A DNA stretch of 64,000 nucleotides from Octopus vulgaris (GCA_951406725.2 OX597840.1:22692001-22756000), one strand, 5' to 3'; shown: positions 22,318 to 64,000, counted from the stretch's first letter. The notes: generated by a model from the sequence alone, not told the origin. Made by a program: numbers and translations.

Positions 22318-23516
<1,199 letters not shown>

Positions 23517-26299: not shown

Positions 26300-26590
26300 T
26301 GTGGTGCTGGTCAACGGAGAAGTTCTAAAAAGAAAATGTTGCTAGAAGCTAGGATCACCAATCATTGATTGGCACTTTTCAGTCATACTATGCGGAGAAA
26401 ATCCCTGGAGAAGGACATCATGCTCGGAATGGTCAGTGGCAAGAGAGGAAGAGGCCGACCAAGAACCCACTGGCTTGACACTATCAAGAGTGATACTGGA
26501 ATGGACATAGCCAATCTGAAAGAAGTGGCCCAGGATAGAACTGACTGGAGGACACTGATCCAACGAGTGACCGAGGGTCGACTGAGCGGA
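26300..26590 (+). mobile_element. RTE-clade LINE 3' fragment; copy at ~44687-44977
   Basis: FSHTMRRKSLEKDIMLGMVSGKRGRGRPRTHWLDTIKSDTG...AQDRTDWR, the characteristic RTE ORF C-terminus. Confidence 0.85.
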
Positions 26591-26994
26591 TATATATATA
26601 TATGTATATGTATGTGTGTGAAGCTATGTGCCTTCACATATATATGTGAAGGTACATGGCTCAGTGGTTAGAGCATTGGGCTCACAATTGTGAGGTAGTG
26701 AGTTCAATTCCCATGCCAGGCTGTGTATTGTGTTTTTGAGCAAAATGTTATGTTTCACTTTCATTTTCAAAGAGTACTCATTTGTTTTTTGTTTTTTTAT
26801 TTTATATATTATATTAATTATTTTTATTCCTATGTTTTGGTTTATGTTTTTCACTGTTTGATTTGCCTAATTGTGGTTTTATCTCTAATTTAATCTATAT
26901 TTATACCGTAAAATTAGATTTAATCCTAATTCTAATTTTTCCCTGTAAGTTTGGATTTATATTTATAATAAATATATATACACACACATACATA

Positions 26995-27026
<32 letters not shown>

Positions 27027-28021: not shown

Positions 28022-31000
28022 GATTTTTTAATGGATTTGCGGGGTGGCTGGGGAAATGTAAAGATGTGCACGACCACCCTTGGACGGTTTTGAATGACCA
28101 TAGAAAGTGCGAGCCCTCTAATTGAAAAATTGTGGACGTGTATAAAGGACACACACACAGACATTTTGCCATTTATATATATACTAGCAGAATTGTCCGG
28201 CGTTGTTCGGGGCTGAATTGCTTGAAAGTACTGTTAATGATTGCACTGAATTATGATGATTATTCAGGCAAATATTGATATAAGTTTACGGTGGGAGATA
28301 AGGACTTAACGATCAAACGTGTGCCATTGCATTGTTTTGGGGGAACCAAATTTCTGATGAGCATTATAGGGGCACCAACTTTAAGTTTGAGAAAGTGTGG
28401 TGGTAGTCCGGGGTGCTCAAAGGAATTGAGTACCTCTATTGGATAGTTGATGACGTCCTCTGGGTCAGGAGTTGTATCGATAGACTGATATACATAGACT
28501 TCCCCAGGAATGAGTTTTAGCATTTCATCATTAATATGGTGAACAGTTTTATTCCTCGGGGCCAGTATAGCCTTTTTGCCAATCCAATCCATATTCTGAT
28601 AATTAGCTTGTAGATCTGGGAACACTGCATCTCTGAGATCAGAAGGCGTCTTAACAATGGTACAAATGGAATCGATGGCAATATTACCATTTTCATCCCC
28701 TGGTATTTTGCCTTCGCCAAGTGCAAGGAGGGTGTGAGGAAATGCTGCTGATGTGATATTACGTCGCATATGAGCACGCATATTGGTGTGAAGTTTGAGA
28801 GTTACTTCCCTTTATTTAAAAAAATATGCATTAAAATGGAAAAAAATGATGGTAAATTATTTGTAAAATCATAGACTCATCGTAGACGCGCGCTAATACC
28901 CAGAAGGGCTCGATATGAATCACGACTATAAGATACCCGGTTTTGGTTAAACTGCATCGCAAAATGTGGGAGTAGTTAGGAATCTAAATCGGAGTAGACA
29001 GACACACAACCTTTCTTTTATATATAAACTAGCAGTATCGCCCGGCGTTGCTCGGGTTGTAAGGGAAATAACTATATAAGCATTTTTAGAGAGTTATAGC
29101 CAAAAAATAGCAAAAAAATGCATTAAAAATTGAAAAAAAAATTAAGGTAAATTTTTTTTTTAAGTCGTTGACACATCGTAGATATTTTTAGAGAGTTACT
29201 TCCATTATATAAAAGCGAAAAAATGCATTAAAATGGAAAAATATGATGGTAAATTTTTTTTAAATCGTAGACTCATCATAGACGCGCTAATACCCAGAAG
29301 GGCTCGATATGAATCACGACTATAAGATACCCGCTTTTGGTTAAACTGCACCGCAAAATGTGGGAGTAGTTACGAATCTAAATCGAACGAGACAGACACA
29401 CAACAGATGCTTTTTTTTTTCAGTCATAGAGTTAGATTTATGAAGGTCTTCAGTAGAAAATCCTTCGAATTCTTACTCGCTGCTTGATATAATGAAATTC
29501 GTATCCATTTTTTGTCAGAATTACAAATTTTGAAAAGACAATAGGAACAAATTTTGGAAAAAAATCTCCCATAATTCACGGAATTAAAATTACACTTCGA
29601 TTTTTGTACAAAACTGTATTTGAAGTGTTTACGAAGTATAATACGTGTTTTCACGAATGTACTAAAGAGATTTACTCTGATATTCTCATTTAAATATGAA
29701 TAGGTAAATTCGGGCGGTTTGGTAACGAAAGGGTTTATATAAGTGTCGTCTGTTTATACATAAACACTGTTTCATACTGTCGCTAATTTACTCTCTTCCA
29801 AGAACATTTTCACTCACTCTTATCTGTTAGCTTCCCATACATTTTACTCATGTATCTATCAGCATGATAGAGAGAAACAAATATTACATCGTTTCACTTT
29901 ATTCGTTGCACACTGTGTGTGTGCGTTTGCGTGTGCTGTAAACCAGACTAAGAAAAGCATTTGACACACACACCAGAATGTGAGTTTTCTGTAAATTTTG
30001 CTTAATTGGAGTTTAAATTTTAAAAACTGGACCTGGCATGACGCGATGCGTTGTACTCTTAAAAATGCTAGGTAAATTGTAATTGGAGAAATCCTATATT
30101 GTAGATTTGTATAACTCCCAAAGGGAGGCAGATAAAATCTGCCTTTTATAATAAGAGATATTTTCATCCTAAAATCTATGTATGGATTGAATGGTTACCT
30201 CTATGGAAATATATACACGCACATTATACATACATGTGTGTATAGATGAATATATAAATACATTTAAATATCTATATACACTTTTGGGCGATCTTTCTGT
30301 TTCTTAGAGATAACTTTAGATCTTATTTTCGTCCTCAAATACTTTGTATGGAGTGAATGGTTACCTCTATGGAAATATATACACACACGTTATACATACA
30401 TGTGTGCGTAGATGAATATATAAATACATTTATATATCTATATACACTTTTGGGCGATCTTTGTGCTACTTAGAGATAACTTTAGATCTTATTTTCGTCC
30501 TAAAAAACTTTGTATGGAGTGAAAGGTTACCTCTATAGAAATATATACACACACATTATACATACATCTGTGTATAGATGAATATATAAATACATTTAAA
30601 TATCTATATACACTTTTGGGCGATCTTTCTGCTACTTGGATATAGGTCTTATATTCGTCCTAAAAAACTTTCCTGTCACACACTCACGCACACACACACA
30701 CAAGTTAGCTTACAATTTTATTTATATATTTGCATGTCTATGTGTGTAAAGAGGAAGTGGCAGAGTGAAAGAGTCACTCACTACAAAAAGTGAATTACTT
30801 TCACTTCATTCGTTGCACACTGTGTGTGTGCGTGTGGTGTAGGCCACACTAAGAAAAGCATTTGACTTATACACCACAATGTGAGTTTTCTCTAAATTTT
30901 GCTTAATTGGGGTTGAAATTTTAAAAACTGGACCTGGCACGACCCGATGCATTCTACTCTTAAAAATGCTAGGTAAATTGTAATTGAAGAAATCCTATAT

Positions 31001-31224
31001 TGTAGATTTCTATAAGATACAAAGGGAGGCAGATAAAATCTGCCTTTTATAATAAGAGATTTAATGGCTTTGCGTGATGACTGGGGAAATGTAAAGATGT
31101 GCACAACCACCCTTCGACGGTTTTGAATGACCATAGAAAGTGCAAGCCCTCTAACTGAAAAATTGTGGATTTGTATAAAGAACACACACACAGACAGATA
31201 TCTTGCCGTTTATATATATAGAGA
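28022..31224 (-). mobile_element. Second copy of the Helitron composite
   Basis: Near-identical to 9605-12810. Confidence 0.8.
28260..28781 (-). pseudogene. Helitron PIF1-like helicase fragment (173 aa in frame)
   Basis: [36 protein letters not shown]; lacks Walker A/B and the Rep domain. Confidence 0.9.
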
Positions 31225-31583
31225 TTCTTTATTAACAAATTCAAGTATACTATAAAATTTCCAGTAATGAATTTGTCTCAGAGTGAATATTTTTACAGAT
31301 GATGACAAATTTGAGGTTCACCTTGACAATATTGAAGTTGATGAAGGGAAAAAACATTGTGTTTTAGCAGACAAAATAGTTTTAATTGTTGTCATATAAA
31401 AAATCTTCACATAGGTGCAGGAGTGGCTGTGTGGTAAGTAGCTTGCTTACTAACCACATGGTTCCGGGTTCAGTCCCACTGTGTGGCACCTTGGGGAAGT
31501 GTCTTCTACTATAGCCTTGGGCCGACCAAAGCCTTGTGAGTGGATTTAGATGGAAACTGAAAGAAGCCCGTTGTATATATGTG

Positions 31584-31617
<34 letters not shown>

Positions 31618-33878
31618 CGAGCCCTCTAACTGAAAAATTGTGGATTTGTATAAAGAACACACACACACACAGACATTTTGCCGTTTATATATATAGAGGT
31701 TTCTTGCCCGCAAGAGATTATGTCCGATCTTTCGTATTCTTCTGTAGGTCTTCCCAAATCACGATCATAGGAAAAGTTGTTGCCAGTTCTTATCAACAAA
31801 AACAAAGCTGATAAATATGCACAGGTGTTGCAAATTAAGTTTAATTACCAATAAACATCAGCTTGGATGACACTTAATCAAATGACAGAGGAAGGTGTAC
31901 AATCAAACTGATTATGTAAACAGAATTCTGATTGGTCAAAAGTGTCTTCTTGTCTCAAGCTCTGATTTTCTGCCTATTCTTGTCAGAACCTTTGATATGG
32001 AGTATCAAAATTTTAATCCCTTTCACACTTCTAAAATGTCAAACAAACTTTAACATTTGTCACAACTGTTTTAGCCGGGAGACGAAACTGATAGTTTGGT
32101 AACCTGCTGAAATAAACAATAAAAATTGAAAGGAGAAAAGAAACAGCTTTGCAAGTTTAACTCAGTGTTTATTGAACAAGTGAGGTGGGAAATTTAAGAA
32201 GCGAAATGTGAGAATATACACGTCTGTGAGGAGACATGAACAAGAATAGCAAAGATCTACAATACCAAAAGAACTGGTAATACATAAATTACAAGTGTTC
32301 TATGAAGAGAACATAAGACTGCTACATAATTCAACATAAATGTGAAACGACATTAAACATCGTATAAAGTAAATGAAGGTTTCAGTAGGAATGCTACGTC
32401 ATATTTACTTAGGGAGTATACATGCACAAAGATGTATTATGATGTTGTCAGTGGTGTTAGATACAGTAAAATATGGCCTGGACCATGATTACCAGCATCA
32501 ACGTGAAACTTCAGAAAGTAGTTAACCATTTAATGGTTTTAGTAAATTTATACAGAAAAAATAAGTATTATACCTATTTCTTTATTACCCACAAGGGGCT
32601 AAACATAGAGGGGACAAACAAGGACAGACATAGGTATTAAGTCGATTACATCGACCCCAGTGCTTAACAGGTACTTAATTTATCGACCCCGAAAGGATGA
32701 AAGGCAAAGTCGACCTCGGCGGAATTTGAACTCAGAAACAACGGCAGATGAAATACCGCTAAGCATTTCACCCGGCGTGCTAACGTTTCTGCCAGCTCGC
32801 CACCTTCTTTATACCGTTTGACAAAAGCTGGTCAAGCAGAGTTATGCACTAGGGTTGTTGGTCTCCTTCGGTATGGTTTCTATGACTGGATGCCCTTCCA
32901 AACATAAACTAGGAAAAGAAGGGAGAGAATGACAGATATATAGGCGCAGGAGTGGCTGTGTGGTAAGGAGCTTGCTTACCAACCACATGGTTCCAGGTTC
33001 AGTCCCACTGCGTGGCATCTTGGGTAAGTGTCTTCTACTAAAGTCCCGGGCCGACCACAGCCTTGTGAGTGGATTTGGTAGAAGGAAACTGAAACAAGCC
33101 CGTCGTATATATATATATATATTCGTGTGTGTGTTTATGTGTCTGTGTTTGTCCTCCTAGCATTGCTTGACAACTGATGCTGGTGTGCTTATGACCCCGT
33201 TACTGAGCGGTTCGGCAAAAGAGACCGATAAAATAAGTACTGGGCTTACAAAAGAATAAGTCCCGGGGTTGAGTTGCTTGATTAAAGGCGGTGCGCCAGC
33301 ATGGCCGCAGTCAAATGACTGAAACATGTAAGGAGTAAAGAGTATATAGAGAGAAATGGATGGTGATGGAGATGTATGAGGACATACACAAAAGGTAGTG
33401 GTGGTGGGGGGAATATTAGTGGTACAGAGGATAGAGGAGGATGTTTCTTAGAAGTGTGAGGGGCTTATGAATGTGTGTGTGTCACTATATCCTTGCCTGG
33501 AGACTGTGTGATAGTTGTGGGTGTCACTGCCATGCAAGCAATGTCCATCGCCAATCTGCCACACAAATATGTCAGGTTATGGGGAAATATTTTAGTTTGA
33601 AACAGGTGAAGGTTGGCAACAGGAAGGGCATCTGGACAGTGAAAATTCACCTCAATAAATATCATCTCACCAATGAGAGACTGGCAAATGTGGACATGGA
33701 GAACAATGATGACAGATGACTGGTATGGTTTGTCTCTCATGAAGGTTTAAGGAAGTAGTTACGCTGCTTCTATAAGCAAATGATTTGCCACATGTTTCAA
33801 TGATATGGCTTCTCTCATGTATGAAGACATTTGAGACTAGACAAAGTGCTGTTTTTGGGAAATGATTTACCACAGGTA

Positions 33879-35558
33879 TTACAGTGATGTGACTTCTTTT
33901 GTATGAATGCGTTTGTGCCTAGTCAGGTGACCATTTTGAGGAAATGATTTACCACAGATATCACAATGATATGGGTTCTCTCCTGTATGAATGCGTTTGT
34001 GCCTAGTCAGGTGATCATTTTTAGAAAATGATTTACCACAGATATCACAATGATATGGCTTCTCTCCTGTATGAATACGATTGTGACCATTTAAAGAACT
34101 TTTATGAGAAAATGATTTACCACAGATATCACACTGATATGGTTTTTCCCCAGTATGAATACGTTTGTGGTTAGTCAGGTGACTATTTTGAGAAAATGAT
34201 TTACCACAGATATCACAATGATATGGCTTCTCTCCTGTATGAATACGATTGTGACCATTTAAAGATCTTTTATCAGAAAATGATTTACCACAGATATCAC
34301 AATGATATGGCTTCTCTCCTGTATGAACACGATTGTGACCATCTAAAGAACTTTTATCAGAAAATAATTTACCACAGATATCACAATGATATGGCTTCTC
34401 TCCTGTATGAATGCGTTTGTGCCTAGTCAGGTGACTATTTTGAGAAAATGATTCACCACAAATATCACATTGATATGGCTTCTCTCCTGAATGAATGCGT
34501 TTGTGACCAGTTACATGATTAATTCTAGAGAAGGATTTACCACAGATATCACACTGATATGGCTTCTCTCCTGAATGAATGCGTTTGTGACCAGTCAAGT
34601 GACCATTTGTAGAAAATGATTCATCACAAATATCACATTGATATGGCTTCTCTCCTGTATGAATGCGTTTGTGACCAGTCAAGTGACCATTTTGAGAAAA
34701 AGATTCACCACAGATATCACATTGATATGGCTTCTCTCCTGTATGAACACGTTTGTGAGCAGTTACATGATTAATTCTAGAGAAGGATTTACCACAGATA
34801 TCACAATGATATGGCTTCTCTCCTGTATGAATACGATTGTGACTATTTAAAGAACTTTTACCAGAAAATGATTTACCACAGATATCACAATGATATGGCT
34901 TCTCTCCTGTATGAATGCGTTTGTGCCTAGTCAGGTGACTATTTTGAGAAAATGATTCACCACAAATATCACATTGATATGGCTTCTCTCCTGAATGAAT
35001 GCGTTTGTGACCAGTTACATGATTAATTCTAGAGTAGGATTTACCACAGATATCACACTGATATGGCTTCTCTCCTGAATGAATGCGTTTGTGGTGAGTC
35101 AAGGTATAATTATGAGAAAATGATTCACCACAAATATCAGAATGATATGGCTTCTCTCCTGTATGAACATGCTTGTGTGTAGTCAAGGTCCAAGCTACAG
35201 AGAAAGATTTACCACAGATATCACAATGATATGGCTTCTCTCCTGAATGAATGTGTTTGTGCCTAGTCAGGTGACTATTTTGAGAAAATGATTTACTACA
35301 GATATCACAATGATATGGCTTCTCTCCTGTATGAATGCGTTTGTGAATAGTTAAATAACGATATCCAGAGAAGGATTTACCACAGATATCACAATGATAT
35401 GATATTTTGCCCTTTTCATTCTTCTCCTCATCAGAAACATCAATTTCTTCAGACTCTCTTTTACATTCAACTTCAGTCCGATATAATTCATTTTCCATAA
35501 TTTTCTTTTTTCTTGTCACAGTACACAAATGTTTTACTTCTTCTCGTATCATCATCAT
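33879..35558 (-). CDS. C2H2 zinc-finger protein ZNF-A2, 559 aa, 18 fingers
   Basis: Intact ORF; the only protein difference seen from A1 is a SGEKP versus SGEKT linker. Confidence 0.92.
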
Positions 35559-38500
35559 CGTTTAACGTCTGCTTTCCATGCTAGCATGGGTTGGACGGTT
35601 CAGCTGGGGTCTGGCAAGCCCGAAGGCTGCACCAGGCCAGTCAGATCTGGCAGTGTTTCTACAGCTGGATGCCCTTCCTAACGCCAACAAATATATTTCT
35701 ACTAATATATCTCCATCAAAAGTGATCTTTGTTAATATCTGAAGATGCTGCAAACTGCCTTCTTAATTGCTTTAACTCATTAACATTCAGATTACTCTGT
35801 CAAATTTAATGCTTATTTATTCAAATTCTTCTGAATTAATCATTCATTATCTTATTGCTTTAAGATTTCAACGATGTGATTCTTTATGTTTATATGACAT
35901 TGCAGGGTGAGTGTAAGAGGCCAGATGTAGGCAATTTCAACATAGAATATGCAGAATATTTGGGAATGGTATGCCCAGTTCAAATGTTAAAGGATTAATT
36001 CAAATACAAATATAATTTTCTGTGTATTCCAGACAATAAAGAAGAGAAATTTTGCTACATAAATGTCAGAGTTCAGAAGATATATTTTGCAGTAATTCAG
36101 TATATATTTATAGAAACAGGGTTATACGTGTTATGAGTAAGACGTTCGATACTAATGATGTAGTTTATATAAAAATCCTGTGAAGCTGAGGTCATCTGAT
36201 AATCTGAAACGAAAGAGAAACAACAGTGTAAAACATAAAAGATAATTAGGAATTAGAGATTAAAATAGTGAAAGTTTTACTACATTTTTATATAGACATG
36301 TCCATAGAGGTGCAGGGATGGTTGTGTGGTAAAAAGTTGGCTCCCCAACACACAAATCTAATAAGCACACCCATTTTCTTCCTTCATTTCACTCCTTTCT
36401 TGAATTCCCAAGATTCCCTGTCACCATCCAATTCCATGAACGTGAATTTGAATGCTTGAGACATTGTGAATCTTTCTTTAGCTGATTACACAACCATGGA
36501 TACGTTGCAGTTACTCTCTTCATAGAGCCTGGTGATCCTGACCCCTGAACTACAAGGTTCCCTCTGCCCAGCATCAATATAAGAAGCATTGTTGGTTCAG
36601 CTGAGTTCTTCTGCTGCTTCTTCACAAACTGCAATGCTGCAGTCCCAAAGTTCGTCACAGAGTACCACAGGCGAAAAAATGGTTAGAAATCACAACCGTT
36701 CATTTATATTTTATTTGGAAAATATAAAGTGGACCTCGGTGGAATTTGAACTCAGAAACTAATAATAATAATGGTAAATTAATTATGTGCAATACTTAAT
36801 TAACAAATGCTCCACCACCCATACAATGTGACGTATGTCAGTTATGTGTGGGTAGGAACCCAGCAAATGTATTTCATCATATTAAATTCCAATATAATCG
36901 TAATATACACAGTCTGGGTACTACTAGCGAACAGTGGGCCCGGTGCGCGAACTCGCGCAAGCTAGTCGATCCTACAATAATTTAAACTAAGTAAATATAT
37001 TATTTTTATAAACAAAATAAGGTTAGGGTTAGGTTTAGGGTTAAAAAGTCGTTGTAGGCTCGACTACTTACGACTAGCTAGCGCGAGTGCGCGCACCGGG
37101 ACCACTGTTCGCTAGTAGTACCCAGACTGTGTATATTACGTTTATATTTCATGAAAGTAACTTAATTTCCATCAGGTTTCGAATATTATTTACGATGGGT
37201 AAAATCTAAACAAATTTTGAATTTCCAAAGATTTGCGACAATAAAAGGTTTTGTACAAAGAGAAAACGAACTTAAATCTAAAAAATAAGACGAAATTATT
37301 ACTTTACTCACGATTAAATCTCGATCGTTATCTTCGAAGGAGTCCTTTTCCCTGCAGTTTTGATACAAAAGCAGAAATGCATCCAGAAAAGTCGCTAATT
37401 TCAGAAAAGGGATCAAAGAACTTCTCAGATACCAGAAGCGATCCTTAGAAAAAAATACCGTTAAAAATGGGGTATGTGTAAAACATGAATTAGTTTGTTT
37501 TGAATACCGAAACGAAATTATGGTAATGTACCAAACTTAATGGCAATTATTTAGGCCAGACATTATTTTTTTTTTGAGCTTAAATTCGGCCGATGTTAAT
37601 TTTACCTTTCATAGCTTCGGAATAAATAAAATAAAGATCCAGTGAGAGACAAAAGTCGATGGTAGTTACTAATCTATCCCCCACTGATATTTAGAAAATA
37701 CTGATATTTAGAAAATGTGAAAGAGATAGAAATTCATAAATAATTTTTTGCTTGAGTGTAATGGAAAAAAAGTTATATTTCCTCTTCTTTTACAACCTTT
37801 TTCTAATAATTAAATGAAAAATTAACCTTAGATAACTAAATAACCTTAAGTGTGAATAAAGAGCTCTTTAAATGTCGAGTTATTTCCCCCTAGCAATTCC
37901 CGCACTTTTTCTCCCGCAATATTTTTCCATTCCCTGCTGTTGATTGACCCTCGTGTTTATTACCGGTCACATCCGTTCAACAGATAATTAGCTGAGATTT
38001 AATTCGATAGACGTGATTGCTAATTAAACATGTAGAAAAATTATCAACTGAATTCTTTATTACGCTAATCTTAAAAACATAACGTCTATAATAAAACCTA
38101 GAATTTCTTACGAAGCTGTCGTTGTCTACCTTGGCTTAAGTTCTCACTACCTGAACATACTGCGACCTCGTCCTTACCGGATCTAAATATTACCTGCTTA
38201 TTGTTACAATGGATTGATTGTGACACCTTCCTCCTCTACATTGGGTCTATAAATAATACGTAAGTGTTATATATATATATATATCCTGCCATTGTCTGTC
38301 GTAGCTGAAGTTCTCATTTGGACATCCGTTTCTATAATAGATTTGTTATTAATGTATCAGTATTGTTCACATCAACGATTCTTTTTATGTGTTCAGTAAG
38401 TTATCAGAAAGAAACTGAAGGAAATAGAGAAATGTAACGAAAATAATTATTGTTATAATCTATATACAGAAGGGTCTCACATAATGTAAAGTAAATGTGA

Positions 38501-40701
38501 ATTGTCAATATTGGGTTAACTAAGAGGTTAATCTAAGCAACATCAGAATTCCAGTCGAAGCAAAATTCTGGTTTAACCCCTCATAACTTCTTTACCTTTT
38601 AAATTTTCAGAAAATGTTTGTAAATTTGGGATCTTTTCGGTTTGAACGGCAGTTTTTTAAAATAATTTCCAGGTAACTAAACACTTTTAAACTTCGTATA
38701 CTGGTAGAATGTGTTTATAAAACATCTTTTTCTCTTGGCTTTATTGAGAAAATTCTATTGTTTGTAAGATATTTGTTGTTTTTTTCTGCATTTTCAGCCT
38801 ATCAATGACGTCTATTGAGGTGAAAACATTCTGTCCCGTATGAATTTATCCTTCGTTTAAGAAACAGATTGGGTTTATTTACATTTGTGAAGAAAAAAGA
38901 TACCCTTCCCGCCACCCCTAACCCTAAATTAGATTGAAATGCAATAGATCGATACTAGGGTCATAATTATGGGTGACAATTTCATATGACACCACTAGAA
39001 AAAACTGTCGTTCAAACTGAAAAGATCCGAGATGGAGCCTGAACAGCCCTTCAGTTGGTTACCTCCTTTCAAACCAACCAACCCATGCCAGTGTGTAAAA
39101 TGGACTTTAAATGATGACGGAGTGATAATTTTAAATTTGCATAGACATCTTGTAGTATGCCGTTTAAAGCCTGCTCACTGTATTTGGCTATCTGATGTCA
39201 TCGACAGTATGGATTTGAATGACACTGGATTTACTTGAGGATTTCCTTCATCATCATCATCGTTTAACGTCCGTTCTCCATGCTAGCATGGGTTAGACGG
39301 TTTGACCGGGGATCTGGGAAGCCAGAAGGCTGCGCCAGGCTCCAGTCTGATCTGGCAGTGTTTCTACAGCTGGATGCCCTTCCTAACGCCAACCACTCCG
39401 TGAGTGTAGTGGGTACTTTTTATGTGCCACCTGCACAGGCGCCAGACGAGGCTGGCAACGGCCACGATCGGATTGGTGCTTTTTACATGCCACAGGCACG
39501 GAAACTAGTCTAGGCGGCGCTGGCATCGGCCACGTTCAGACGGTGCATTGACGTGCCACCGGCGCAGGGATCACGACTGCAGTTTCCATTGAATTTGATG
39601 TTGGTGTACTTGACTCAATGGATCTCCTCAAGCATAGGGTCGAAATGGTGTTTCTTCACTTGCTACCTGCACAGGAGTCAGTCCTGTCAGTAGAGTTTAA
39701 AAAATGAGAGAAAGAGAAAGAAAATAGAATTTCCAAGACTAGTATTCTCTACAATTGTTTCAACCCATTGTGCATCTGTGCCTCGCAGGTGAGATGCTGT
39801 ACGAACAGTTGTGGTGCTTCCCTCGTTGCAGGTGTGTTTTGTCAGGTAACTTGTCAAAAGTGCTTCATATTTTAATTTCTGTTTTGCTTAATTCAGTTAG
39901 AATATATTTTGGTAGTTGGATTATTTGAAGCTTCTTTTAGTTTCCATCTACCAAATCCTTGCCCAAGCCTTTGATTGGCCACTCTGGGACTGAACCCAGG
40001 ACCATGTGGTTGGGAAGCCAACTTCTTACCACACAACCATCCCTGCACTTCTACAGCCATGTCTATATAAAAATGTAGTAAAACTTTCACTGTCTTAATC
40101 TCTCTAATTCCTAATTATCTTGTATGTTTTACACTGTTGTTTCTCTTTCGTTTCAGATTATCAGATGACCTCAGCTTCACAGGATTTTTATATAAACTAC
40201 ATCATTAGTATTGAATGTCTTACTCATAACACGTATAACCCTGTTTCTATAAATATATACTGAATTACTGCAAAATATATCTTCTGAACTCTGACATTTA
40301 TGTAGCAAAATTTCTCTTCTTTATTGTCTGGAATACACTGAAAATTATATTTGTATTTGAATTAATCCTTCACCATTTCATCTGTGCATATCAGTCCCAA
40401 ATATTCTGCATATTCTATGTTAAAATTGCCCACATCTGGCCTCTTACACTCACCCTGCAATGTCTTATAAACATATAGAATCACATCGTTAAAATCTTAA
40501 AGCAATAAGATAATGAATGATTATTTCAGAAGAATTTGGAGAGATAGGCATTACATTTGACAGTAATCTGAATGTTTGCAGCATCTTCAGATATTAACAA
40601 AGATCACTATTGATGGAGATATATCAGTAGAAATATTTGTTAAGAGCAATATACGAGAAGAAGGAAAACATTTGTGTACTGTGACGAGAGAAAGGAAAAT
40701 T

Positions 40702-41901
40702 ATGGAAAATGAATTATATCGGAGTGAAGTTGAATGTAAAAGAGAGTCTGAAGAAATTGATTTTTCTGATGGGGAGAAGAATGAAAAGGGCAAAATATCA
40801 TTTCATTGTGAAATCTGTGGTAAATCCTTCTCTGGATATCGTTATTTAACTAGGCACAAGCGTGTTCATACAGCAAAGAAGCCATATCATTGTGATATCT
40901 GTGGTAAATCATTTTCTGAAAATGGTAACTTAACTATTCACAAGCGTGTTCATACAGGAGAGAAGCCACATCATTGTGATATCTGTGGTATATCATTTTC
41001 TCAAAATGGTAACTTAACTCAGCACAAGCGTGTTCATACAGGAGAAAAGCCATATCAGTGTGATATCTGTGGTAAATCATTTTTTCAAAAATATGATTTG
41101 ACTGTCCATAAACGTATTCATACAGGAGAGAAGCCTTATCACTGTGATATCTGTGGAAAATCATTTTCTCAAAATTATAACTTGACTCGTCACAGACACA
41201 TTCACACAGGAGAGAAGCCATATCAGTGTGATATCTGTGGTAAACCTTTCTCTGAAACTGGTAACTTAACTAAGCACAAGCGTGTTCATACAGGAGAGAA
41301 GCCATATCCTTGTGATATCTGTGGTAAATCCTTCTCTCATTGTGACCATTTTTCTAAACATAAACATATTCATACAGGAAAGAAGCCACATTGCTGTGAT
41401 GTCTGTGGTAAATCATTCTCTCAAAGTAATGGCTTGACTCATCACAAACATACACATACAGGAGTAAAGCCATATCCTTGTGATATCTGTGGTAAATCAT
41501 TTTCTCAAAAAATTAATTTGACTGACCACAAACGTATTCATACAGGAGAGAAGCCATATCGTTGTGATATCTGTGGTAAATCCTTCTCTGTCACTAGTAA
41601 CTTAACTTGTCACAAACGTGTTCATACAGGAGAGAAGCCATATCAATGTGATATCTGTGGTAAATCTTTCTCTGGAAGTCATCATGTAACTGCTCACAAG
41701 CGTGTTCATACAGGAGAGAAGCCATATCAGTGTGATATCTGTGGTAAATCATTTTCTCAAAGACTTAATTTGACTAACCACAAACGCATTCATACAGGAG
41801 AGAAGCCATATCATTGTGATATCTGTGGTGAGTCATTTTCTCAAAATGGTCACCTGACTAGGCACAAACGCATTCATACAAAAGAAGTCACATCACTGTA
41901 A
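40702..41901 (+). CDS. C2H2 zinc-finger protein ZNF-B2, 399 aa from first ATG, 13 fingers
   Basis: Intact ORF from MENELY to HTKEVTSL; the track start 40576 is TTG. Confidence 0.92.
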
Positions 41902-44900
41902 TACCTGTGGTAAATCATTTCCCAAAAACAGCACTTTGTCTAGTCTCAAATGTCTTCATACATGAGAGAAGCCATATCATTGAAACATGTGGCAAATCAT
42001 TTGCTTATAGAAGCAGCGTAACTACTTCCTTAAACCTTCATGAGAGACAAACCATACCAGTCATCTGTCATCATTGTTCTCCATGTCCACATTTGCCAAT
42101 CTCTCATTGGTGAGATGATATTTATTGAGGTGAATTTTCACTGTCCAGATGCCCTTCCTGTTGCCAACCTTCACCTGTTTCAAACTGAAATATTTCCCCG
42201 TGACCTGACATGTTTTTGTTGCAGATTGGCGATGGACATTGCTTGCATGGCAGTGACACCCACAACTATCACACAGTCTCCAGGCAAGGATATAGTAACA
42301 CACACACACACACACACACATTCATAAGCCCCTCACACTTCTTTGAAACATCTCCCTCTATCCTCCGTACCACTAATATTCCCCCACCACCACTACCTAT
42401 TGTGTATGTCCTCATACATCTCCAACATCATCTACTTCTCTCTATATATCTATCATTCTCTCCTTTCTTTTCCTACTGGAATCGTCAGGTTTCTCCTCGA
42501 TAGTAAGACACTCGTCTCTCTCCTGCTGTTATACATCAACCTCCCAACTGACAAAAAGCCATCCCCCTCGCTTCCACTACCTCTGACAACCGAGTGGATC
42601 TTTATCTTGCGAGTTACTTGGTGATCCACAATGGTGCTGGTGCCACATAAAAAACATCCCATGCGCTCAGTAAAGGGGTCGGCATTAGGAATGGCCTCCA
42701 GCCATGGGAACCTTGCCAAAGCAGACGATGGATCACCAGGACTCATTCTTTCTACACCTAGTACTTATTCTATCTTTCCCTTTTGCCAAACTGCTTAACT
42801 CACCAGCATCGGTTGTCAAGCGATATTGGGGGACAAACACAAACATATGCGCAGGAGTGGCTGTGTGGTAAGTAGCTTGCTAACCAACCACATGGTTCCG
42901 GGTTCAGTCCCACTGCGTGGCATCTTGGGCAATTGTCTTCTGCTATAGCCTCGGGCCCACCAGTGCCTTGTGAGTGGATTTGGTAGACGGAAACTGAAAG
43001 AAGCCTGTCGTATATATGTATATATATATATGTGTGTTTGTTTCTGTGTCAGTGTTTGTCCCCCTAGCATTGCTTGACAACCGATGTTGGTGTGTTTACG
43101 TCCCCGTCACTTAGCGGTTCGGCAAATTAGTGCCGGGGTCGATTTTCTCGACTAAAGGCGGTGCTCCAGCATTGCCGCAGACAAATGACTGAAACAAGTA
43201 AAAGAGAAAACAGAGAGAGAGATACATACACATACCAATCTACACATAACAGGCTCCATTTAGTTTCCACCCACCAAATCCACTCACAGGGCTTTGGTCG
43301 GCTCGAGGTTATTATAGAAGACACTTACCCAAGGTGTCCATGCTTAGCATGGGTTGTACATTTTGACCAGGGCTGGAAGGCTGCATCTGATTCCTGTCTG
43401 ATTTCGCATGGTTTCTACGGCTGGATGCTCTTCCTTTCACCAACCACTCTGAGAGTGTAATGGGTGCTCAACAATAGAATGAAGAGTTAATGAATGCAGA
43501 TGTCCGAAATGTGGAACATTCTTGAAAGTACTGGAAGGTTTGGAATTCCATTTTAAACAAGGACAGAGATTCATAATTGAGACTGATTTCACTTGTGCAT
43601 CAAAAATTTAATTTGTGCAATAACTAGTTCAGGATGTGAACACACAAAAAAGAAGAAGCATGGATGTCCCTCAGACAGAGAACACATTTCATGAGGAATA
43701 GATTCATTTCCCAAGTTACAGACATTGTTTATGAGTTTTATTTTTCAAGCACAACATCCAAATTTTGAAAGCTTCTACTACCATAATAAATGCATCTGTG
43801 TCTTACCAAGAAGTTTATAAAGAGCAAAGGAATGCTTCTCAGTAAACAACTCTAGACTTGTTTCTTTGCTTGTGAATCAGTGGTCACGTCTACAAATGAT
43901 GGTGTCCCTGAGTCTTTTCAAAGTGATTCAGAAAACAATTATAATAATAATATTTTGTTTATTCTAAATGATCTTGACACTGTTTTTTACTTTACATAAA
44001 ATATTCTTTACATTCTACTGTTGTTTTATTGTCATTTATTTACAAGTATTATGAATTTTAGAGGCAAAATATTTTTCTGGGAATGAATTACAGTTTATAA
44101 CATTGCTTCTCTGGGAAATTATTGCTTTGCTTTATGAGTTTTCACTTTAGGAGCAATCTCCAGGAAGAAATTAACTCATATATCAAGGCATTATTGTCTC
44201 TGACGTTATTTTGGCTCAAGTCCAGCAATTTCAGGGGAAGGAATAAGTTGAATAACCACATGGATCAGCATGTGTGCTCTTTACATGAACTAGGACAGGG
44301 GCCTTTTACAGGGATCAGCTGAGATACCCTTCGGTCATGATTGACCATGTGATTGCACCTAGAAAGTTACCCTCCCAGGCACAAGTCCGGGCAAGGTTGT
44401 TTATGGAAGACCAGCAGTCGCCCATGCATACCGGCCTCTCCTCTCCACGCCACCAGTGTTATCCAAGGGAAAGGCAAAGGGGCCGGTACAGCTTGGCACC
44501 AGTGATGTCACAACTCATTTCTACAGCTGAGTGAACTGGAGCAACATGAAATAAAGTGTCTTGCTCAAGAACACAACACACAGCACAGTCCGGGATTTGA
44601 ACTCACAACCTCACATTCATAAGCTCGATGCTCTAACCACTGACACATGGGCCTTCACTGGGACCAGCACCATATATATATATATATGTGGTGCTGGTCA
44701 ACGGAGAAGTTCTAAAAAGAAAATGTTGCTAGAAGCTAGGATCACCAATCATTGATTGGCACTTTTCAGTCATACTATGCGGAGAAAATCCCTGGAGAAG
44801 GACATCATGCTCGGAATGGTCAGTGGCAAGAGAGGAAGAGGCCGACCAAGAACCCACTGGCTTGACACTATCAAGAGTGATACTGGAATGGACATAGCCA

Positions 44901-45366
44901 ATCTGAAAGAAGTGGCCCAGGATAGAACTGACTGGAGGACACTGATCCAACGAGTGACCGAGGGTCGACTGAGCGGATATATATATATATGTATATGTAT
45001 GTGTGTGAAGCTATGTGCCTTCACATATATATGTGAAGGTACATGGCTCAGTGGTTAGAGCATTGGGCTCACAATTGTGAGGTAGTGAGTTCAATTCCCA
45101 TGCCAGGCTGTGTATTGTGTTTTTGAGCAAAATGTTATGTTTCACTTTCATTTTCAAAGAGTACTCATTTGTTTTTTGTTTTTTTATTTTATATATTATA
45201 TTAATTATTTTTATTCCTATGTTTTGGTTTATGTTTTTCACTGTTTGATTTGCCTAATTGTGGTTTCATCTCTAATTTAATCTATATTTATACCGTAAAA
45301 TTAGATTTAATCCTAATTCTAATTTTTCCCTGTAAGTTTGGATTTATATTTATAATAAATATATAT

Positions 45367-45398
<32 letters not shown>

Positions 45399-45922
45399 TC
45401 ATATATATAAGAATTGTTTGTGTTAGGCTGTGTAGATATTAGAACATTTATAGACTTTCTATCTATAAATGTTCTAATATCTACACAGCCTTGGTTCTTT
45501 ATCTCATTACGCAAAATATTGTTATATACACACGCTGGCATGTGACCAATGTTGAAACCCCTTCGAAAAATTACCGAAACTGGAACTTCACTATGGTATC
45601 TATAGCAGTTCTTCAACATTACCTGACACCATTACCTATTATAACCTATATATATATATGTACACCATAAAAACACACGTAATTTGCACAGGTAATTTTC
45701 TGGATAAAAACTGTTAAAAAGAAGCTTCTACTCATGTAAAATTCACACCCAATTTTTAGCCAGAGGGAAAAGGTTTCCAATTTAGTTGTATTTAGCATAA
45801 TTTCACTTATGATTAGATTTTATTAAATTTTCCCTAATTAAAAATAATTTGTTTAACAGGTATCACATTGAAAGTTATTAAATTATGAAGTGTTTGTGTT
45901 GTTTATAATAAACTTTATTTTA

Positions 45923-48728: not shown

Positions 48729-50156
48729 TTACAGTGATGTGACTTCTTTTGTATGAATGCGTTTGTGCCTAGTCAGGTGACCATTTTGAGGAAATGATTT
48801 ACCACAGATATCACAATGATATGGCTTCTCTCCTGTATGAATGCGTTTGTGCCTAGTCAGGTGATCACTTTTAGAAAATGATTTACCACAGATATCACAA
48901 TGATATGGCTTCTCTCCTGTATGAATACGATTGTGACCATTTAAAGATCTTTTATCAGAAAATGATTTACCACAGATATCACACTGATATGGTTTTTCCC
49001 CAGTATGAATACGTTTGTGGTTAGTCAGGTGACTATTTTGAGAAAATGATTTACCACAGATATCACAATGATATGGCTTCTCTCCTGTATGAATACGATT
49101 GTGACCATTTAAAGATCTTTTATCAGCAAATGATTTACCACAGATATCACAATGATATGGCTTCTCTCCTGTATGAATACGATTGTGACCATCTAAAGAA
49201 CTTTTATCAGAAAATGATTTACCACAGATATCACACTGATATGGTTTTTCCCCAGTATGAATACGTTTGTGGTTAGTCAGGTGAATATTTTGAGAAAATG
49301 ATTTACCACAGATATCACAATGATATGGCTTCTCTCCTGTATGAATGCGTTTGTGCCTAGTCAGGTTACTATTTTGAGAAAATGATTCACCACAAATATC
49401 ACATTGATATGGCTTCTCTCCTGAATGAATGCGTTTGTGACCAGTTACATGATTAATTCTAGAGAAGGATTTACCACAGATATCACACTGATATGGCTTC
49501 TCTCCTGAATGAATGCGTTTGTGACCAGTCAAGTGACCATTTGTAGAAAATGATTCATCACAAATATCACATTGATATGGCTTCTCTCCTGTATGAATGC
49601 GTTTGTGGTTAGTCAGGTGAATATTTTGAGAAAATGATTTACCACAGAAATCACAATGATATGGCTTCTCTCCTGTATGAACACGTTTGTGAGCAGTTAC
49701 ATGATTAATTCTAGAGAAGGATTTACCACAGATATCACACTGATATGGCTTCTCTCCTGTATGAACATGCTTGTGTGTAGTCAAGGTCCAAGCTACAGAG
49801 AAAGATTTACCACATATATCACAATGATATGGCTTCTCTCCTGAATGAATGTGTTTGTGCCTAGTCAGGTGACTATTTTGAGAAAATGATTTACTACAGA
49901 TATCACAATGATATGGCTTCTCTCCTGTATGAATGCGTTTGTGAATAGTTAAATCACGATATCCAGAGAAAGATTTACCACAGATATCACAATGATATGA
50001 TATTTTGCCCTTTTCATTCTTCTCCTCATCAGAAACATCAATTTCTTCAGACTCTCTTTTACATTCAACTTCAGTCCGATATAATTCATTTTCCATAATT
50101 TTCTTTTTTCTTGTCACAGTACACAAATGTTTTACTTCTTCTCGTATCATCATCAT
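48729..50156 (-). CDS. C2H2 zinc-finger protein ZNF-A3, 475 aa, 15 fingers
   Basis: Intact ORF with the same termini as A1/A2 and a different internal finger order. Confidence 0.92.
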
Positions 50157-50485
50157 CGTTTAACGTCTGCTTTCCATGCTAGCATGGGTTGGACGGTTCA
50201 ACTGGAGTCTGGCAAGCCCGAAGGCTGCACCAGGCCAGTCAGATCTGGCAGTGTTTCTACAGCTGGATGCCCTTCCTAACACCAACAACTCCGAGAGTGT
50301 ATATTGCTCTTAAATATTTCTACTAATATATCTCCATCAAAAGTGATCTTTGTTAATATCTGAAGATGCTGCAAACTGCCTTCTTAATTGCTTTAACTCA
50401 TTAACATTCAGATTACTCTGTCAAATTTAATGCTTATTTATTCAAATTCTTCTGAATTTAATGCTTATTTATTCAAATTCTTCTG

Positions 50486-53400
50486 TGAAGCTGAGGTCAT
50501 CTGATAATCTGAAACGAAAGAGAAACAATAGTGTAAAACATACAAGATAATTAGGAATTAGAGAGATTAAAACAGTGAAAGTTTTACTACATTTTTATAT
50601 AGACATGGCTGTAGAAGTGCAGGGATGGTTGTGTGGTAAGAAGTTGGCTTCCCAACCACATGGTCCTGGGTTCAGTCCCAGCGTGGCAAGGATTTGGTAG
50701 ATGGAAACTAAAAGAAACTTCAAATAATCCAACTACCAAAATATATTCTAACTGAATTAAGCAAAACAGAAATTAAAATATGAAGCACTTTTGACAAGTT
50801 ACCTGACAAAACACACCTGCAACGAGGGAAGCACCACAACTGTTCGTACAGCATCTCACCTGCGAGGCACAGATGCACAATGGGTTGAAACAATTGTAGT
50901 GAATACTAGTCTTGGAAATTCTATTTTCTTTCTCTTTCTCTCATTTTTTAAACTCTACTGACAGGACTGACTCCTGTGCAGGTAGCAAGTGAAGAAACAC
51001 CATTTCAACCCTGTGCTTGAGGAGATCCATTGAGTCAAGTACACCAACATCAAATTCAATGGAAACTGCAGTTGTGATCCCTGCGCCGGTGGCACGTCAA
51101 TGCACCGTCTGAACGTGGCCGATGCCAGCGCCACCTAGACTAGTTTCCATGCCTGTGGCATGTAAAAAGCACCAATCCGATCGTGGCCGTTGCCAGCCTC
51201 GTCTGGCACCTGTGCTGGTGGCACATAAAAAGTTCCCACTACACTCACGGAGTGGTTGGCGTTAGGAAGGGCATCCAGCTGTAGAAACACTGCCAGATCA
51301 GACTGGAGCCTGGCGCAGCCTTCTGGCTTCCCAGATCCCCGGTCAAACCGTCCAACCCATGCTAGCATGGAGAACGGACGTTAAACGATGATGAAGGAAA
51401 TCCTCAAGTAAATCTAGTGTCATTCAAATCCATACTGTCGATGACATCAGATAGTCAAATACAGTGAGCAGGCTTTAAACGGCATACTACAAGATGTCTA
51501 TGCAAATTTAAAATTATCACTCCGTCATCATTTAAAGTCCATTTTACACACTGGCATGGGTTGGATGGTTTGAAAGGAGGTAACCAACTGAAGGGCTGTT
51601 CAGGCTCCATCTCGGATCTTTTCAGTTTCAATGGCAGATTTTCTAGTGGTGTCATATGAAATTGTCACCCATAATTATGACCCTAGTATCGATCTATTGC
51701 ATTTCAATCTATTTTAGGGTTAGGGGTGGCGGGAAGGGTATCTTTTTTCTTCACAAATGTAAATAAATCCAATCTGTTTCTTAAACGAGGCACATATTCA
51801 TACGAGACAGAATGTTTTCACCTCAATAGACGTCATTGATAGGTTGAAATTGCAGAAATTGAAGAAAAAAACAACAAATATCTTACAAACTATAGAATTT
51901 TCTCAATAAAGCCAAGAGAAAAAGATGTTTTATAAACACATTCTACCAGTATACGAAGTTTAAAAGTGTTTAGTTACGTGGAAATTATTTTAAAAAACTG
52001 CCGTTCAAACCGAAAAGATCCCAAATTTACAAACATTTTCTGAAAATTTAAAAGGTAAAGAAGTTATGAGGGGTTAAACCAGAATTTTGCTTCGACTGGA
52101 ATTCTGATGTTGCTTAGATTAACCTCTTAGTTAACCCAATATTGACAATTCACATTTACTTTACATTATGTGAGACCCTTCTGTATATAGATTATAACAA
52201 TAATTATTTTCGTTACATTTCTCTATTTCCTTCAGTTTCTTTCTGATAACTTACTGAACACATAAAAAGAATCGTTGATGTGAACAATACTGATACATTA
52301 ATAACAAATCTATTATAGAAACGGATGTCCAAATGAGAACTTCAGCTACGACAGACAATGGCAGGATATATATATATATATAACACTTACGTATTATTTA
52401 TAGACCCAATGTAGAGGAGGAAGGTGTCACAATCAATCCATTGTAACAATAAGCAGGTAATATTTAGATCCGGTAAGGACGAGGTCGCAGTATGTTCAGG
52501 TAGTGAGAACTTAAGCCAAGGTAGACAACGACAGCTTCGTAAGAAATTCTAGGTTTTATTATAGACGTTATGTTTTTAAGATTAGCGTAATAAAGAATTC
52601 AGTTGATAATTTTTCTACATGTTTAATTAGCAATCACGTCTATCGAATTAAATCTCAGCTAATTATCTGTTGAACGGATGTGACCGGTAATAAACACGAG
52701 GGTCAATCAACAGCAGGGAATGGAAAAATATTGCAGGAGAAAAAGTGCGGGAATTGCTAGGGGGAAATAACTCGACATTTAAAGAGCTCTTTATTCACAC
52801 TTAAGGTTATTTAGTTATCTAAGGTTAATTTTTCATTTAATTATTAGAAAAAGGTTGTAAAAGAAGAGGAAATATAACTTTTTTTCCATTACACTCAAGC
52901 AAAAAATTATTTATGAATTTCTTTCTCTTTCACATTTTCTAAATATCAGTATTTTCTAAATATCAGTGGGGGATAGATTAGTAACTACCATCGACTTATG
53001 TCTCTCACTGGATCTTTATTTTATTTATTCCGAAGCTATGAAAGGTAAAATTAACATCGGCCGAATTTAAGCTCAAAAAAAAAAATAATGTCTGGCCTAA
53101 ATAATTGCCATTAAGTTTGGTACATTACCATAATTTCGTTTCGGTATTCAAAACAAACTAATTCATGTTTTACACATACCCCATTTTTAACGGTATTTTC
53201 TTCTAAGGATCGCTTCTGGTATCTGAGAAGTTCTTTGATCCCTTTTCTGAAATTAGCGACTTTTCTGGATGAACCTTGTAGTTCAGGGGTCAGGATCACC
53301 AGGCTCTATGAAGAGAGTAACTGCAACGTATCCATGGTTGTGTAATCAGCTAAAGAAAGATTCACAATGTCTCAAGCATTCAAATTCAAATTCACGTTAA

Positions 53401-54050
53401 TGGAATTGGATGGTGACAGGGAATCTTGGGAATTCAAGAAAGGAGTGAAATGAAGGAAGAAAATGGGTGTGCTTATTAGATTTGTGTGTTGGGGAGCCAA
53501 CTTCTTACCACACAACCATCCCTGCACCTCTATGGACATGTCTATATAAAAATGTAGTAAAACTTTCACTATTTTAATCTCTCTAATTCCTAATTATCTT
53601 TTATGTTTTACACTGTTGTTTCTCTTTCGTTTCAGATTATCAGATGACCTCAGCTTCACAGGATTTTTATATAAACTACATCATTAGTATTGAACGTCTT
53701 ACTCATAACACGTATAACCCTGTTTCTATAAATATATACTGAATTACTGCAAAATATATCTTCTGAACTCTGACATTTATGTAGCAAAATTTCTCTTTAT
53801 TGTCTGGAATTCACAGAAAATTATATTTGTATTTGAATTAATCCTTTAACATTTGAACTGGGCATACCATTCCCAAATATTCTGCATATTCTATGTTGAA
53901 ATTGCCTACATCTGGCCTCTTACAATCACCCTACAATGTCATATAAACATAAAGAATCACATCGTTGAAATCTTAAAGCAATAAGATAATGAATGATTAA
54001 TTCAGAAGAATTTGAATAAATAAGCATTAAATTTGACAGAGTAATCTGAA
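50486..54050. other. Inverted copy of the A/B intergenic spacer
   Basis: Spacer landmarks (MLAWV and MEPEQ pseudo-ORFs, 400-bp MITE, MSIEVQ/MAVEVQ ends) are in reverse order and strand relative to 17930-21600 and 36350-40010. Confidence 0.93.
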
Positions 54051-54208
54051 TGTTAATGAGTTAAAGCAATTAAGAAGGCAGTTTGCAGCATCTTCAGATA
54101 TTAACAAAGATCACTATTGATGGAGATATATCAGTAGAAATATTTGTTAAGAGTAATATACGAGAAGAAGGAAAACATTTGTGTACTGTGACGAAAGAAA
54201 GGAAAATT

Positions 54209-54820
54209 ATGGAAAATGAATTATATCGGAGTGAAGTTGAATGTAAAAGAGAGTCTGAAGAAATTGATTTTTCTGATGGGGAGAAGAATGAAAAGGGCAA
54301 AATATCATATCATTGTGATATCTGTGGTAAGTCCTTCTCTGGATATCGTTATTTCATGATGCACAAGCGTGTTCATACAGCAAAGAAGCCATATCGGTGT
54401 GATATCTGTGGTAAATCATTTTCTGAAAATGGTAACTTAACTATTCACAAACACATTCATACAGGAGAGAAGCCACATCATTGTGATATCTGTGGTATAT
54501 CATTTTCTCAAAATGCTAACTTAACTCAGCACAAGCGTGTTCATACAGGTGAAAGGCCATATCGTTGTGATATCTGTGGTAAATCCTTCTCTGTCACTAG
54601 TAACTTAACTTGTCACAAACGTGTTCATACAGGAGAGAAGCCATATCAGTGTGATATCTGTGGTAAATCATTTTCTCAAAGTAGTACCTTGACTAACCAC
54701 AAACGCATTCATTCAGGAGAGAAGCCATATCAGTGTGATATCTGTGGTAAATCATTTTCTCAAAATGGTCACCTGACTAGGCACAAACGCATTCATACAA
54801 AAGAAGTCACATCACTGTAA
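54209..54820 (+). CDS. C2H2 zinc-finger protein ZNF-B3, 203 aa from first ATG, 6 fingers
   Basis: Intact ORF exactly 7 x 28 aa shorter than B2. Confidence 0.88.
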
Positions 54821-61729: not shown

Positions 61730-62906
<1,177 letters not shown>

Positions 62907-64000
62907 CGTTTAACGTCTGCTTTCCATGCTAGCATGGGTTGGACGGTTCAACTGGGGTCTGGCAAGCCCGAAGGCTGCACGAGGCCAGTCAGATCTGGCA
63001 GTGTTTCTACAGCTGGATGCCCTTCCTAACGCCAACAACTCCGAGAGTGTATATTGCTCTTAAATATTTCTACTAATATATCTCCATCAAAAGTGATCTT
63101 TGTTAATATCTGAAGATGCTGTAAACTGCCTTCTTAATTGCTTTAACTCATTAACATTCAGATTACTCTGTCAAATTTAATGCTTATTTATTCAAATTCT
63201 TCTGAATTAATCATTCATTATCTTATTGCTTTAAGATTTCAACGATGTGATTCTTTATGCAGGGTGAGTGTAAGAGGCCAGATGTAGGCAATTTCAACAT
63301 AGAATATGCAGAATATTTGGGAATGGTATGCCCAGTTCAAATGTTAAAGGATTAATTCAAATACAAATATAATTTTCTGTGTATTCCAGACAATAAAGAA
63401 GAGAAATTTTGCTACATAAATGTCAGAGTTCAGAAGATATATTTTGCAGTAATTCAATATATATTTATAGAAACAGGGTTATACGTGTTATGAGTAAGAC
63501 GTTCAATACTAATGATGTAGTTTATATAAAAATCCTGTGAAGCTGAGGTCATCTGATAATCTGAAACGAAAGAGAAACAACAGTGTAAAACATAAAAGAT
63601 AATTAGGAATTAGAGAGATTAAAATAGTGAAAGTTTTTCTACATTTTTATATAGACATGGCCACAGAGGTGCAGGGATGGTTGTGTGGTAAGAATTTTGA
63701 TTCCCAACACACAAATCTAATAAGCACACCCATTTTCTTCCTTCATTTCACTCCTTTCTTGAATTCCCAAGATTCCCTGTCACCATCCAATTCCATGAAC
63801 GTGAATTTGAATTTGAATGCTTGAGACATTGTGAATCTTTCTTTAGCTGATTACACAACCATGGATACGTTGCAGTTACTCTCTTCATAGAGCCTGGTGA
63901 TCTTGACCCCTGAACTACAAGGTTCATCCAGAAAAGTCGCAAATTTCAGAAAAGGGATCAAAGAACTTCTCAGATACCAGAAGCGATCCTTAGAAAAAAA

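Follow-up and report, generated by a model that had tools for sequence, protein, structure and literature searches.

Reversal of a spacer between opposed C2H2 zinc-finger genes in an octopus array, with a predicted exchange of promoters and first exons

Bacterial invertible promoters, such as fimS with FimB and FimE or the hin/hix system, are turned by a dedicated recombinase at short fixed sites, and all of the DNA is conserved. In the human CTRB1-CTRB2 inversion (HsInv0030), according to the cited portions of the reports, promoter and first exon are exchanged, the mature protein is unchanged and the expression ratio is reversed (PMC6145291, PMC4576756). HsInv0241 is described, in the part of the source cited here, as a recurrent human inversion between inverted paralogues that exchanges the first exons of AQP12A and AQP12B (PMC3961182). 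The flip/flop region of Saccharomyces chromosome XIV, as far as the cited excerpt goes, re-inverts over evolutionary time and is stable in the laboratory (PMC9731477). An inversion that breaks a zinc-finger gene is, from the cited part of another report, already known (PMC4591017), and the octopus C2H2 zinc-finger expansions, with multi-finger genes in clusters, have been described as well (PMC12513265). In the main text of the octopus report, the word "promoter" occurs 0 times and the string "inver" once (in "invertebrates"), and head-to-head units and inversions are untreated in that main text (PMC12513265). We found no published paper on the locus described below in the literature searched, outside of which most subscription journals fall.

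The DNA analysed here (the window) is a stretch of 64,000 nucleotides from Octopus vulgaris (G000:C27:22692001-22756000), and the genome searched comprises 2.8 Gb in 227 contigs. Seven C2H2 finger arrays lie inside this 64-kb window. The genes are of two types: an A gene carries a SINE-like insertion ahead of the start codon and has the flank "a", while a B gene has no insertion and the flank "b". They are paired head to head across a spacer, the two ends of which we call P (the MSIEVQ end) and Q. We consider it probable that the spacer of unit 3 was reversed long ago in the germline, through a rearrangement involving the two inverted arms, with a predicted swap of promoters and non-coding first exons and with unchanged proteins.

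The reversed spacer and its junctions

The gene pair of unit 3 consists of ZNF-A3 (48729..50096, minus strand; single exon, 455 aa, 15 C2H2 fingers) and ZNF-B3 (54209..54820, plus strand; single exon, 203 aa, 6 C2H2 fingers). Since every ZNF coding sequence (CDS) is one exon, running from the MENE codon to the stop, the A3 and B3 proteins are unaltered by the junctions; both frames are open and retain the conserved C-terminus. A protein search with the first 60 residues of A3 gave 103 matches, mostly generic fingers, only 2 of which exceeded 50% identity across 92-100% of the query. These two best matches are named Octopus proteins, and we therefore treat the cluster as octopus-type. Finger arrays vary by whole fingers among copies (window 15462-62928), with 17, 17 and 15 fingers in the A genes and 13 and 6 in the B genes. 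The frames of B1 and A4 end early, at 272 aa and 186 aa, respectively, as do three copies at C27:23.47-23.49 Mb (hereafter C27b).

Units 1 (8890-27305) and 2 (27306-45678) share 99.6% identity over 13.3 kb and 98.8% over the remainder, and would represent either a duplication that happened very recently or two haplotypes placed one after the other in the assembly. At window positions 5789-8340, a "b" flank that lacks its gene comes immediately after a gap of 100 N, and a further unit may have been lost in this gap. The beginning of the window (1-5240) is occupied by long AT-only microsatellite arrays around a 488-aa reverse-transcriptase frame (2584-4050; Pfam RVT_1, E 9.9e-31). Between units, at 28263-28811, there is a Pif1 helicase 2B-domain fragment (E 2.7e-15) that presumably comes from a Helitron-type element.

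A preliminary description had reported that the spacer of unit 3 is reversed relative to units 1 and 2, and this is confirmed. Positions 37380-40207 of unit 2 align on the opposite strand to 53271-50459 of unit 3 (97.3%), with the same outcome for unit 1, and 35693-36560 of unit 2 align on the opposite strand to 54143-53271 of unit 3 (97.8%). The marker TNLISTP lies on the plus strand at 17936, 36352 and 63711 and on the minus strand at 53485; MSIEVQ/TNLISTP serves as a reading-frame marker only and falls within no ORF of at least 150 aa. The unique, reversed part of the unit-3 spacer spans 50661..53482, with its Q end at 50661 and its P end at 53482. It contains a SINE-like repeat near the Q end (51240..51394) and a MITE-like element with 34-nt terminal inverted arms (51609..52026), and it lacks an 819-bp segment that units 1 and 2 have (reference copy in unit 2 at 36561..37379, minus strand, with the P-side donor GTGAGT at 37311). 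This deletion is common to units 3-5. Within the 819-bp segment lies a 78-nt, 95% inverted repeat (window 36891-37148). The visible start of unit 4 had been said to match units 1 and 2, and unit 4 does match unit 1, but in its visible half only; outside the window, the opposite end is turned towards another gene of A type.

Thirty diagnostic sites separate the A arms (A1, A2, A4) from the B arms (B1, B2, B5); the C2 arm was left out of this alignment because of a long insertion. In B3, the first 20 of the 30 sites are A-type (53528-54030), the next 9 are B-type (54116-54279) and the last is A-type (54309). The A-type arm now joined to B3 occupies 53483..54039 on the plus strand, with an acceptor TTTCAG at 53630-53635 and the last exon from 53636, and it is followed by the interval in which homologous A-type sequence switches to B-type (54040..54115, plus strand). 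In A3, which is read on the minus strand, the first 4 sites are B-type (50616-50543), 11 are missing and the remaining 15 are A-type. Here the B-type distal arm (50483..50660, with a splice acceptor TTTCAG that ends at 50509) halts at CACAG, and the sequence restarts 344 bases on in A-type sequence, with CAG on both sides, so that the A3 breakpoint (50483..50486) combines a 344-bp deletion with 3 bp of CAG microhomology. A 31-bp tandem duplication at the same junction (50424..50485, minus strand) is common to the C27b copy and absent from the unit-4 copy. The A-type proximal arm of A3 (50299..50454, minus strand) follows, in a region where a 117-bp stretch (50342-50458) has the same sequence as 53999-54115 of B3, and then the multi-copy insertion that marks all A-type genes (50146..50295, minus strand), which we take to be SINE-like and which lies in the 5' untranslated part of the last exon. 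The pattern of diagnostic sites is far beyond chance. It also coincides with the preliminary description, in which the B3 leader was A-type up to about 54050 and B-type from about 54115, and the A3 leader B-type beyond 50486; the two switches fall within 54040-54115 and at 50483-50486.

The two junctions are non-reciprocal, with a loss of DNA at one of them and copying of DNA at the other. Had a crossover in 54040-54115 been reciprocal, A3 would be B-type at sites 577-592 of the arm alignment, but at these five sites A3 is A-type, like B3, and 11 B-type sites are gone. A pure reciprocal inversion through non-allelic homologous recombination (NAHR) is ruled out, given the loss of 344 bp and the five sites that are A-type on both sides. 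The earlier proposal of an inversion by recombination between the inverted arms thus stands for the reassignment of 5' regions and fails for a plain crossover, since 344 bp were deleted and 31 bp duplicated. A double-strand break might instead have been repaired at one end by homology and at the other by microhomology joining; by an alternative repair route, a crossover would have been succeeded by deletion and conversion. Upstream, the two arms of unit 3 still match perfectly over 117 bp, and the 3' ends of the genes over 178 bp, which we infer to be enough for rare germline exchange.

The junctions also bear on whether the spacer could be a programmed or somatically reversible switch that toggles the pairing of promoters with finger arrays, in the manner of bacterial phase variation. 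We regard such a switch as very improbable. The inverted arms that flank the spacer, with the perfect identity left in them and at the 3' ends of the genes, and the several spacer orientations found in one assembly would suit it, as would 7 tyrosine-recombinase-like matches on other contigs. However, the junction has both lost and acquired DNA, the copies switch at different points and there is no fixed core site. Site-specific recombinases conserve DNA at the exchange, and the loss of DNA at the A3 junction therefore does not fit such an enzyme. The preliminary description had stated that no recombinase is encoded in the window, and this was borne out for the long ORFs tested: the long non-repeat ORFs are zinc fingers, the reverse transcriptase (RVT_1) and the Pif1 piece. 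Among the best candidates of a PF00589 profile search, none lies on C27; the 7 matches are partial, on C4, C5, C9, C10, C12, C17 and C18, with open frames of 199-583 aa, and are likely mobile elements.

Predicted 5' modules and their reassignment

The spacer is likely made of two unrelated, back-to-back 5' modules with two different non-coding first exons. No inverted homology was found between the P and Q modules (best alignment E 0.47). On the Q side, the likely non-coding first exon of the Q-facing gene occupies 52391..52723 on the minus strand, with a donor GTAAGT at 52390-52385, as indicated by the ends of paralogue contigs and by donor conservation; in the regions compared, an exact copy of this donor stands at 13 places, and even paralogues that are 77-80% alike have it. 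On the P side, a 5' module at 52966..53270 on the plus strand, with an invariant TTCGTTTCGGTA at 53135, is predicted from its conservation to provide the P-facing gene with promoter and first exon. Among 11 aligned paralogues, 10 have GTGAGT at the end of the P module, and unit 1 has GTAAGT. In unit 3, this module is cut at 53270/53271 by the 819-bp deletion, which removed the conserved donor; the donor lies about 70 bases inside the segment missing from units 3-5.

The association of both modules with genes was examined on C29, where 20 stretches were chosen from 49 matches. Of the loci examined there, 4/4 have the Q module upstream of a stand-alone ZNF gene in the same orientation, and 14/15 have the P module upstream of an arm in the same orientation. 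Stand-alone ZNF genes at G000:C29:19.0-22.2 Mb (L041-L060) fall into two 5'-module families, P and Q.

Public contigs provide additional information, with the reservation that none of the matching runs listed is recorded as RNA, that the RNA label of runs X14-X17 is a guess and that contigs give neither strand nor start. Over the whole spacer, 15 of 78 contig joints were listed, with SINE and MITE repeats dominating. The listed contigs of X14, X15 and X16 end at 52391, adjoining the minus-strand GTAAGT, and the listed pieces of X17 cross 52391. Contigs of the Q exon carry bases of the C29 paralogues (7/7 in X14) and 0/7 unit-3 bases, and the first-exon architecture is thus shown for the family, as seen in the C29 paralogues rather than in A3 or B3. 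At the acceptor, the summed depth steps up in RNA-labelled runs (from 33.7 to 718 in X14 and from 63 to 168 in X16) and falls in the DNA run X1 (from 9415 to 2592), which argues that the last exon likely starts at the arm acceptor TTTCAG. Two X14 contigs have loose ends before 53635. A search for their upstream exon was unsuccessful, the best donor match to the consensus in the fetched regions reaching 17 of 30 letters, and none of the listed pieces joins a first exon to the acceptor.

A promoter swap between A3 and B3 is, from the arrangement of these modules, likely. A3 would now be driven by the intact Q-side first exon, with a predicted leader about 300 bases shorter (412 vs 705). B3 would have received the P-side module, which in units 3-5 is without splice donor; because of this, B3 is predicted to be likely weakly or abnormally transcribed. 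The preliminary description had allowed that transcription might start inside the arms, leaving the flip without regulatory effect, but the apparent first-exon modules lie outside the arms. Its idea of an invertible cassette that reassigns promoter and 5' exons is upheld for the reassigned 5' regions and the predicted first-exon modules in the spacer, and not for a reversible, programmed or somatic switch.

If the germline rearrangement is accepted, there is still a substantial chance, though rather less than even, that it is real but has no regulatory effect, either with copies that are decaying or with promoters that act alike. The early-ending frames of B1, A4 and three C27b copies would agree with decay, as would the missing P donor of units 3-5 and the derivation of the listed RNA contigs from C29 paralogues. 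Against this, the frames of A3 and B3 have stayed open and end in the conserved C-terminus, the P and Q modules are unrelated in sequence, and the deletion joint is present in the RNA-labelled run X14.

Copies of the junction, its age and the wider array

In the genome, the deletion junction is present three times, compared to 18 exact matches to the intact-arm pattern. All three have Q/B-type distal bases, two of them also carry the 31-bp duplication, and none of the 3 genome copies has returned to face P. One copy belongs to a second flipped unit with the 31-bp duplication 730 kb away, at C27b, where a normal and a flipped unit are found; the C27b units may be the other haplotype instead of a separate locus. 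The sequence of C27b beside an assembly gap (L011-L012, G000:C27:23469659-23472000) is deletion-rich and about 82% identical to unit 2 in two blocks, as is typical of a poorly polished contig end, and the C27b flipped spacer (81.9% in two blocks) was excluded from dating for this reason. The unit-3 spacer differs from those of units 1, 2, 4 and 5 by 1.18-1.32% and has 11 variants that are private or common only to the C27b flipped copy.

The 344-base joint (with 3 ambiguous letters) is also present in public runs. It was found in the DNA run X1 (organism label A, depth 249, short side 27 letters) and in the RNA-labelled run X14 (organism label B, depth 58, short side 23 letters); with short sides of 23 and 27 letters, these joints fit unit 3 or unit 4 alike and show only that the junction exists outside the assembly. 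X1 and X14 are two studies with two organism labels, and X1, the run with the best match, may be the assembly's own sample, so that at least one independent study contains the joint. The joint was not among the matches listed for run X16, and in the raw-read run X23, 1 read of 12.9 million aligned.

These observations make it very unlikely that near-identical repeats were misassembled into a flipped unit. The region does contain gaps, the 99.6% identity of units 1 and 2 extends over 13.3 kb, and the deletion-rich C27b copy lies beside a gap, all of which could promote misassembly. However, both junctions have sequence of their own (deletion, duplication and private SNPs) in several distinct copies, the deletion joint is present in two public runs, unit 3 has 11 private spacer variants as well as its own finger arrays, and a second flipped unit with the same duplication exists 730 kb away. 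The copies also bear on the idea of a reversible switch, against which stand the 3/3 deletion junctions that face Q, with none flipped back, and the old variants that the flipped spacer has acquired as its own. Given that the junction is present three times in the genome and that the spacer is 1.2-1.3% diverged from its neighbours, the sequence comparison indicates that the unit-3 event is old and inherited, with the junction passed on through later duplications. The question of a single versus a recurrent event, raised in the preliminary description, is in part answered: this junction arose once, and arm exchanges recurred over evolutionary time.

Beyond the window, unit 4 has the structure A-P-Q-A' and unit 5 the structure B'-P-Q-B, i.e., they are A-A and B-B pairs, and the second A-type gene of unit 4 carries the same deletion junction as A3. 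The 9-kb block between the spacers of units 4 and 5 is inverted relative to units 1-3 (window 62900-64000 and G000:C27:22754001-22774000). B3 and the left gene of unit 5 (B5l) have the same switch, with 13/13 two-row sites common in the 5' part; in its 3' flank, B3 agrees with the right gene of unit 5 (B5) at 20 of 35 two-row sites and with B5l at 4. This split between 5' and 3' sites suggests that a further exchange occurred inside the finger arrays. Later NAHR and tandem duplication would have spread the junctions and made the A-A and B-B pairs.

The order of these events could have been different. Within the germline reading, it is nearly an even chance that the first event inverted a block between two units (B gene, flanks and A gene), as now seen in units 4-5, and that unit 3 arose later in two ordinary steps. 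In units 4-5, both junctions are found on adjacent spacers, as one block inversion would give, and the junction is simpler in its unit-4 copy, which lacks the 31-bp duplication. On the other hand, two homologous steps, the same in either direction, turn the arrangement of unit 3 into that of units 4/5 or back, the B5l-like 5' end and B5-like 3' end of B3 fit both orders, and trees of the spacer and of the a and b flanks do not root the order of events.

Exchange in the arrays is apparently not confined to unit 3. There are at least 3 other mosaic switch intervals, representing independent exchange points among copies, and the bB_Q arm switches again at yet another interval; some of these mosaic switches may be gene conversion. 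At sites 409-432, the arms of C29 units are B-like where they face P and A-like where they face Q; this phase is the reverse of that on C27 and points to an older flip. Many P-family C29 genes (L041-L060, 19.0-22.2 Mb) use the intron piece that faces Q in C27 units, so that the Q-facing gene of the C27 units would be an older hybrid. Also on C29, at L026 (G000:C29:23884553-23885697), two arms stand head to head without spacer as a near-palindrome, with both 5' modules gone, and L040 (G000:C29:20274686-20279868) is a tandem array of units of about 147 bp derived from the MITE-like element of the spacer. Taken together, the differing switch points among copies indicate that the array is a product of ordinary repeated recombination between inverted paralogues. 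A bolder version, in which inversions keep re-pairing two promoter classes with finger arrays, recombine the arrays and continue in somatic cells, e.g., neurons, to give cell-to-cell variation in repertoire, seems to us highly improbable.

Comparison with known rearrangements

The octopus locus resembles fimS and hin/hix in that a segment predicted to bear promoters lies between inverted sequences and occurs in two orientations. Unlike those systems, it has no dedicated recombinase among the long ORFs tested in the window or, on C27, among the best PF00589 candidates, no fixed short site and no conservation of DNA; of the features that define phase variation, conservative exchange at a fixed short site is absent, and a recombinase linked to the element was not found among these ORFs and candidates. 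We therefore view unit 3 as likely to be a known kind of rearrangement and not a controlled genetic switch, and live somatic flipping as most improbable. If the germline reading is correct, unit 3 exemplifies, at sequence resolution, that the diversification of octopus C2H2 clusters goes beyond tandem duplication and the gain or loss of fingers: inversions, too, would bring promoters and first exons together with other finger arrays and create hybrid genes. Human and yeast loci already show this mechanism, and the locus is thus a useful case of cluster evolution and not a new kind of system; its importance would rise much only if single units flipped within an animal.

Comparison with the eukaryotic loci is limited to the cited portions of the respective reports. 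Like the yeast flip/flop region, the octopus units are an inverted repeat of gene pairs, but the yeast arms are almost identical through homogenisation and 15 genes are inverted, whereas the octopus arms are 90-94% alike and 5' modules are inverted (PMC9731477). HsInv0241 shares with the octopus array the recurrent exchange between inverted paralogues and a first-exon swap, here predicted; the repeats of the human inversions in that report measure 1.6-24 kb, whereas in the octopus arms perfect identity upstream of the CDS extends over 89-122 bp at most (PMC3961182). CTRB1-CTRB2 is the closest precedent. As in that locus, two similar genes lie in opposite directions and the inversion is between repeats that overlap the genes, and unit 3 shows the corresponding features: opposed paralogues with homologous arms, both orientations, and breakpoints inside the arms. 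The octopus spacer differs in its length of about 3.6 kb, in its predicted first exons, which are non-coding, and in the 344 bp lost at one junction. Moreover, unlike the CTRB1-CTRB2 alleles, the octopus states are paralogues side by side in one array, with an effect on expression that is predicted only. With these differences, and by analogy, the octopus rearrangement would work like the CTRB1-CTRB2 inversion (PMC6145291, PMC4576756).
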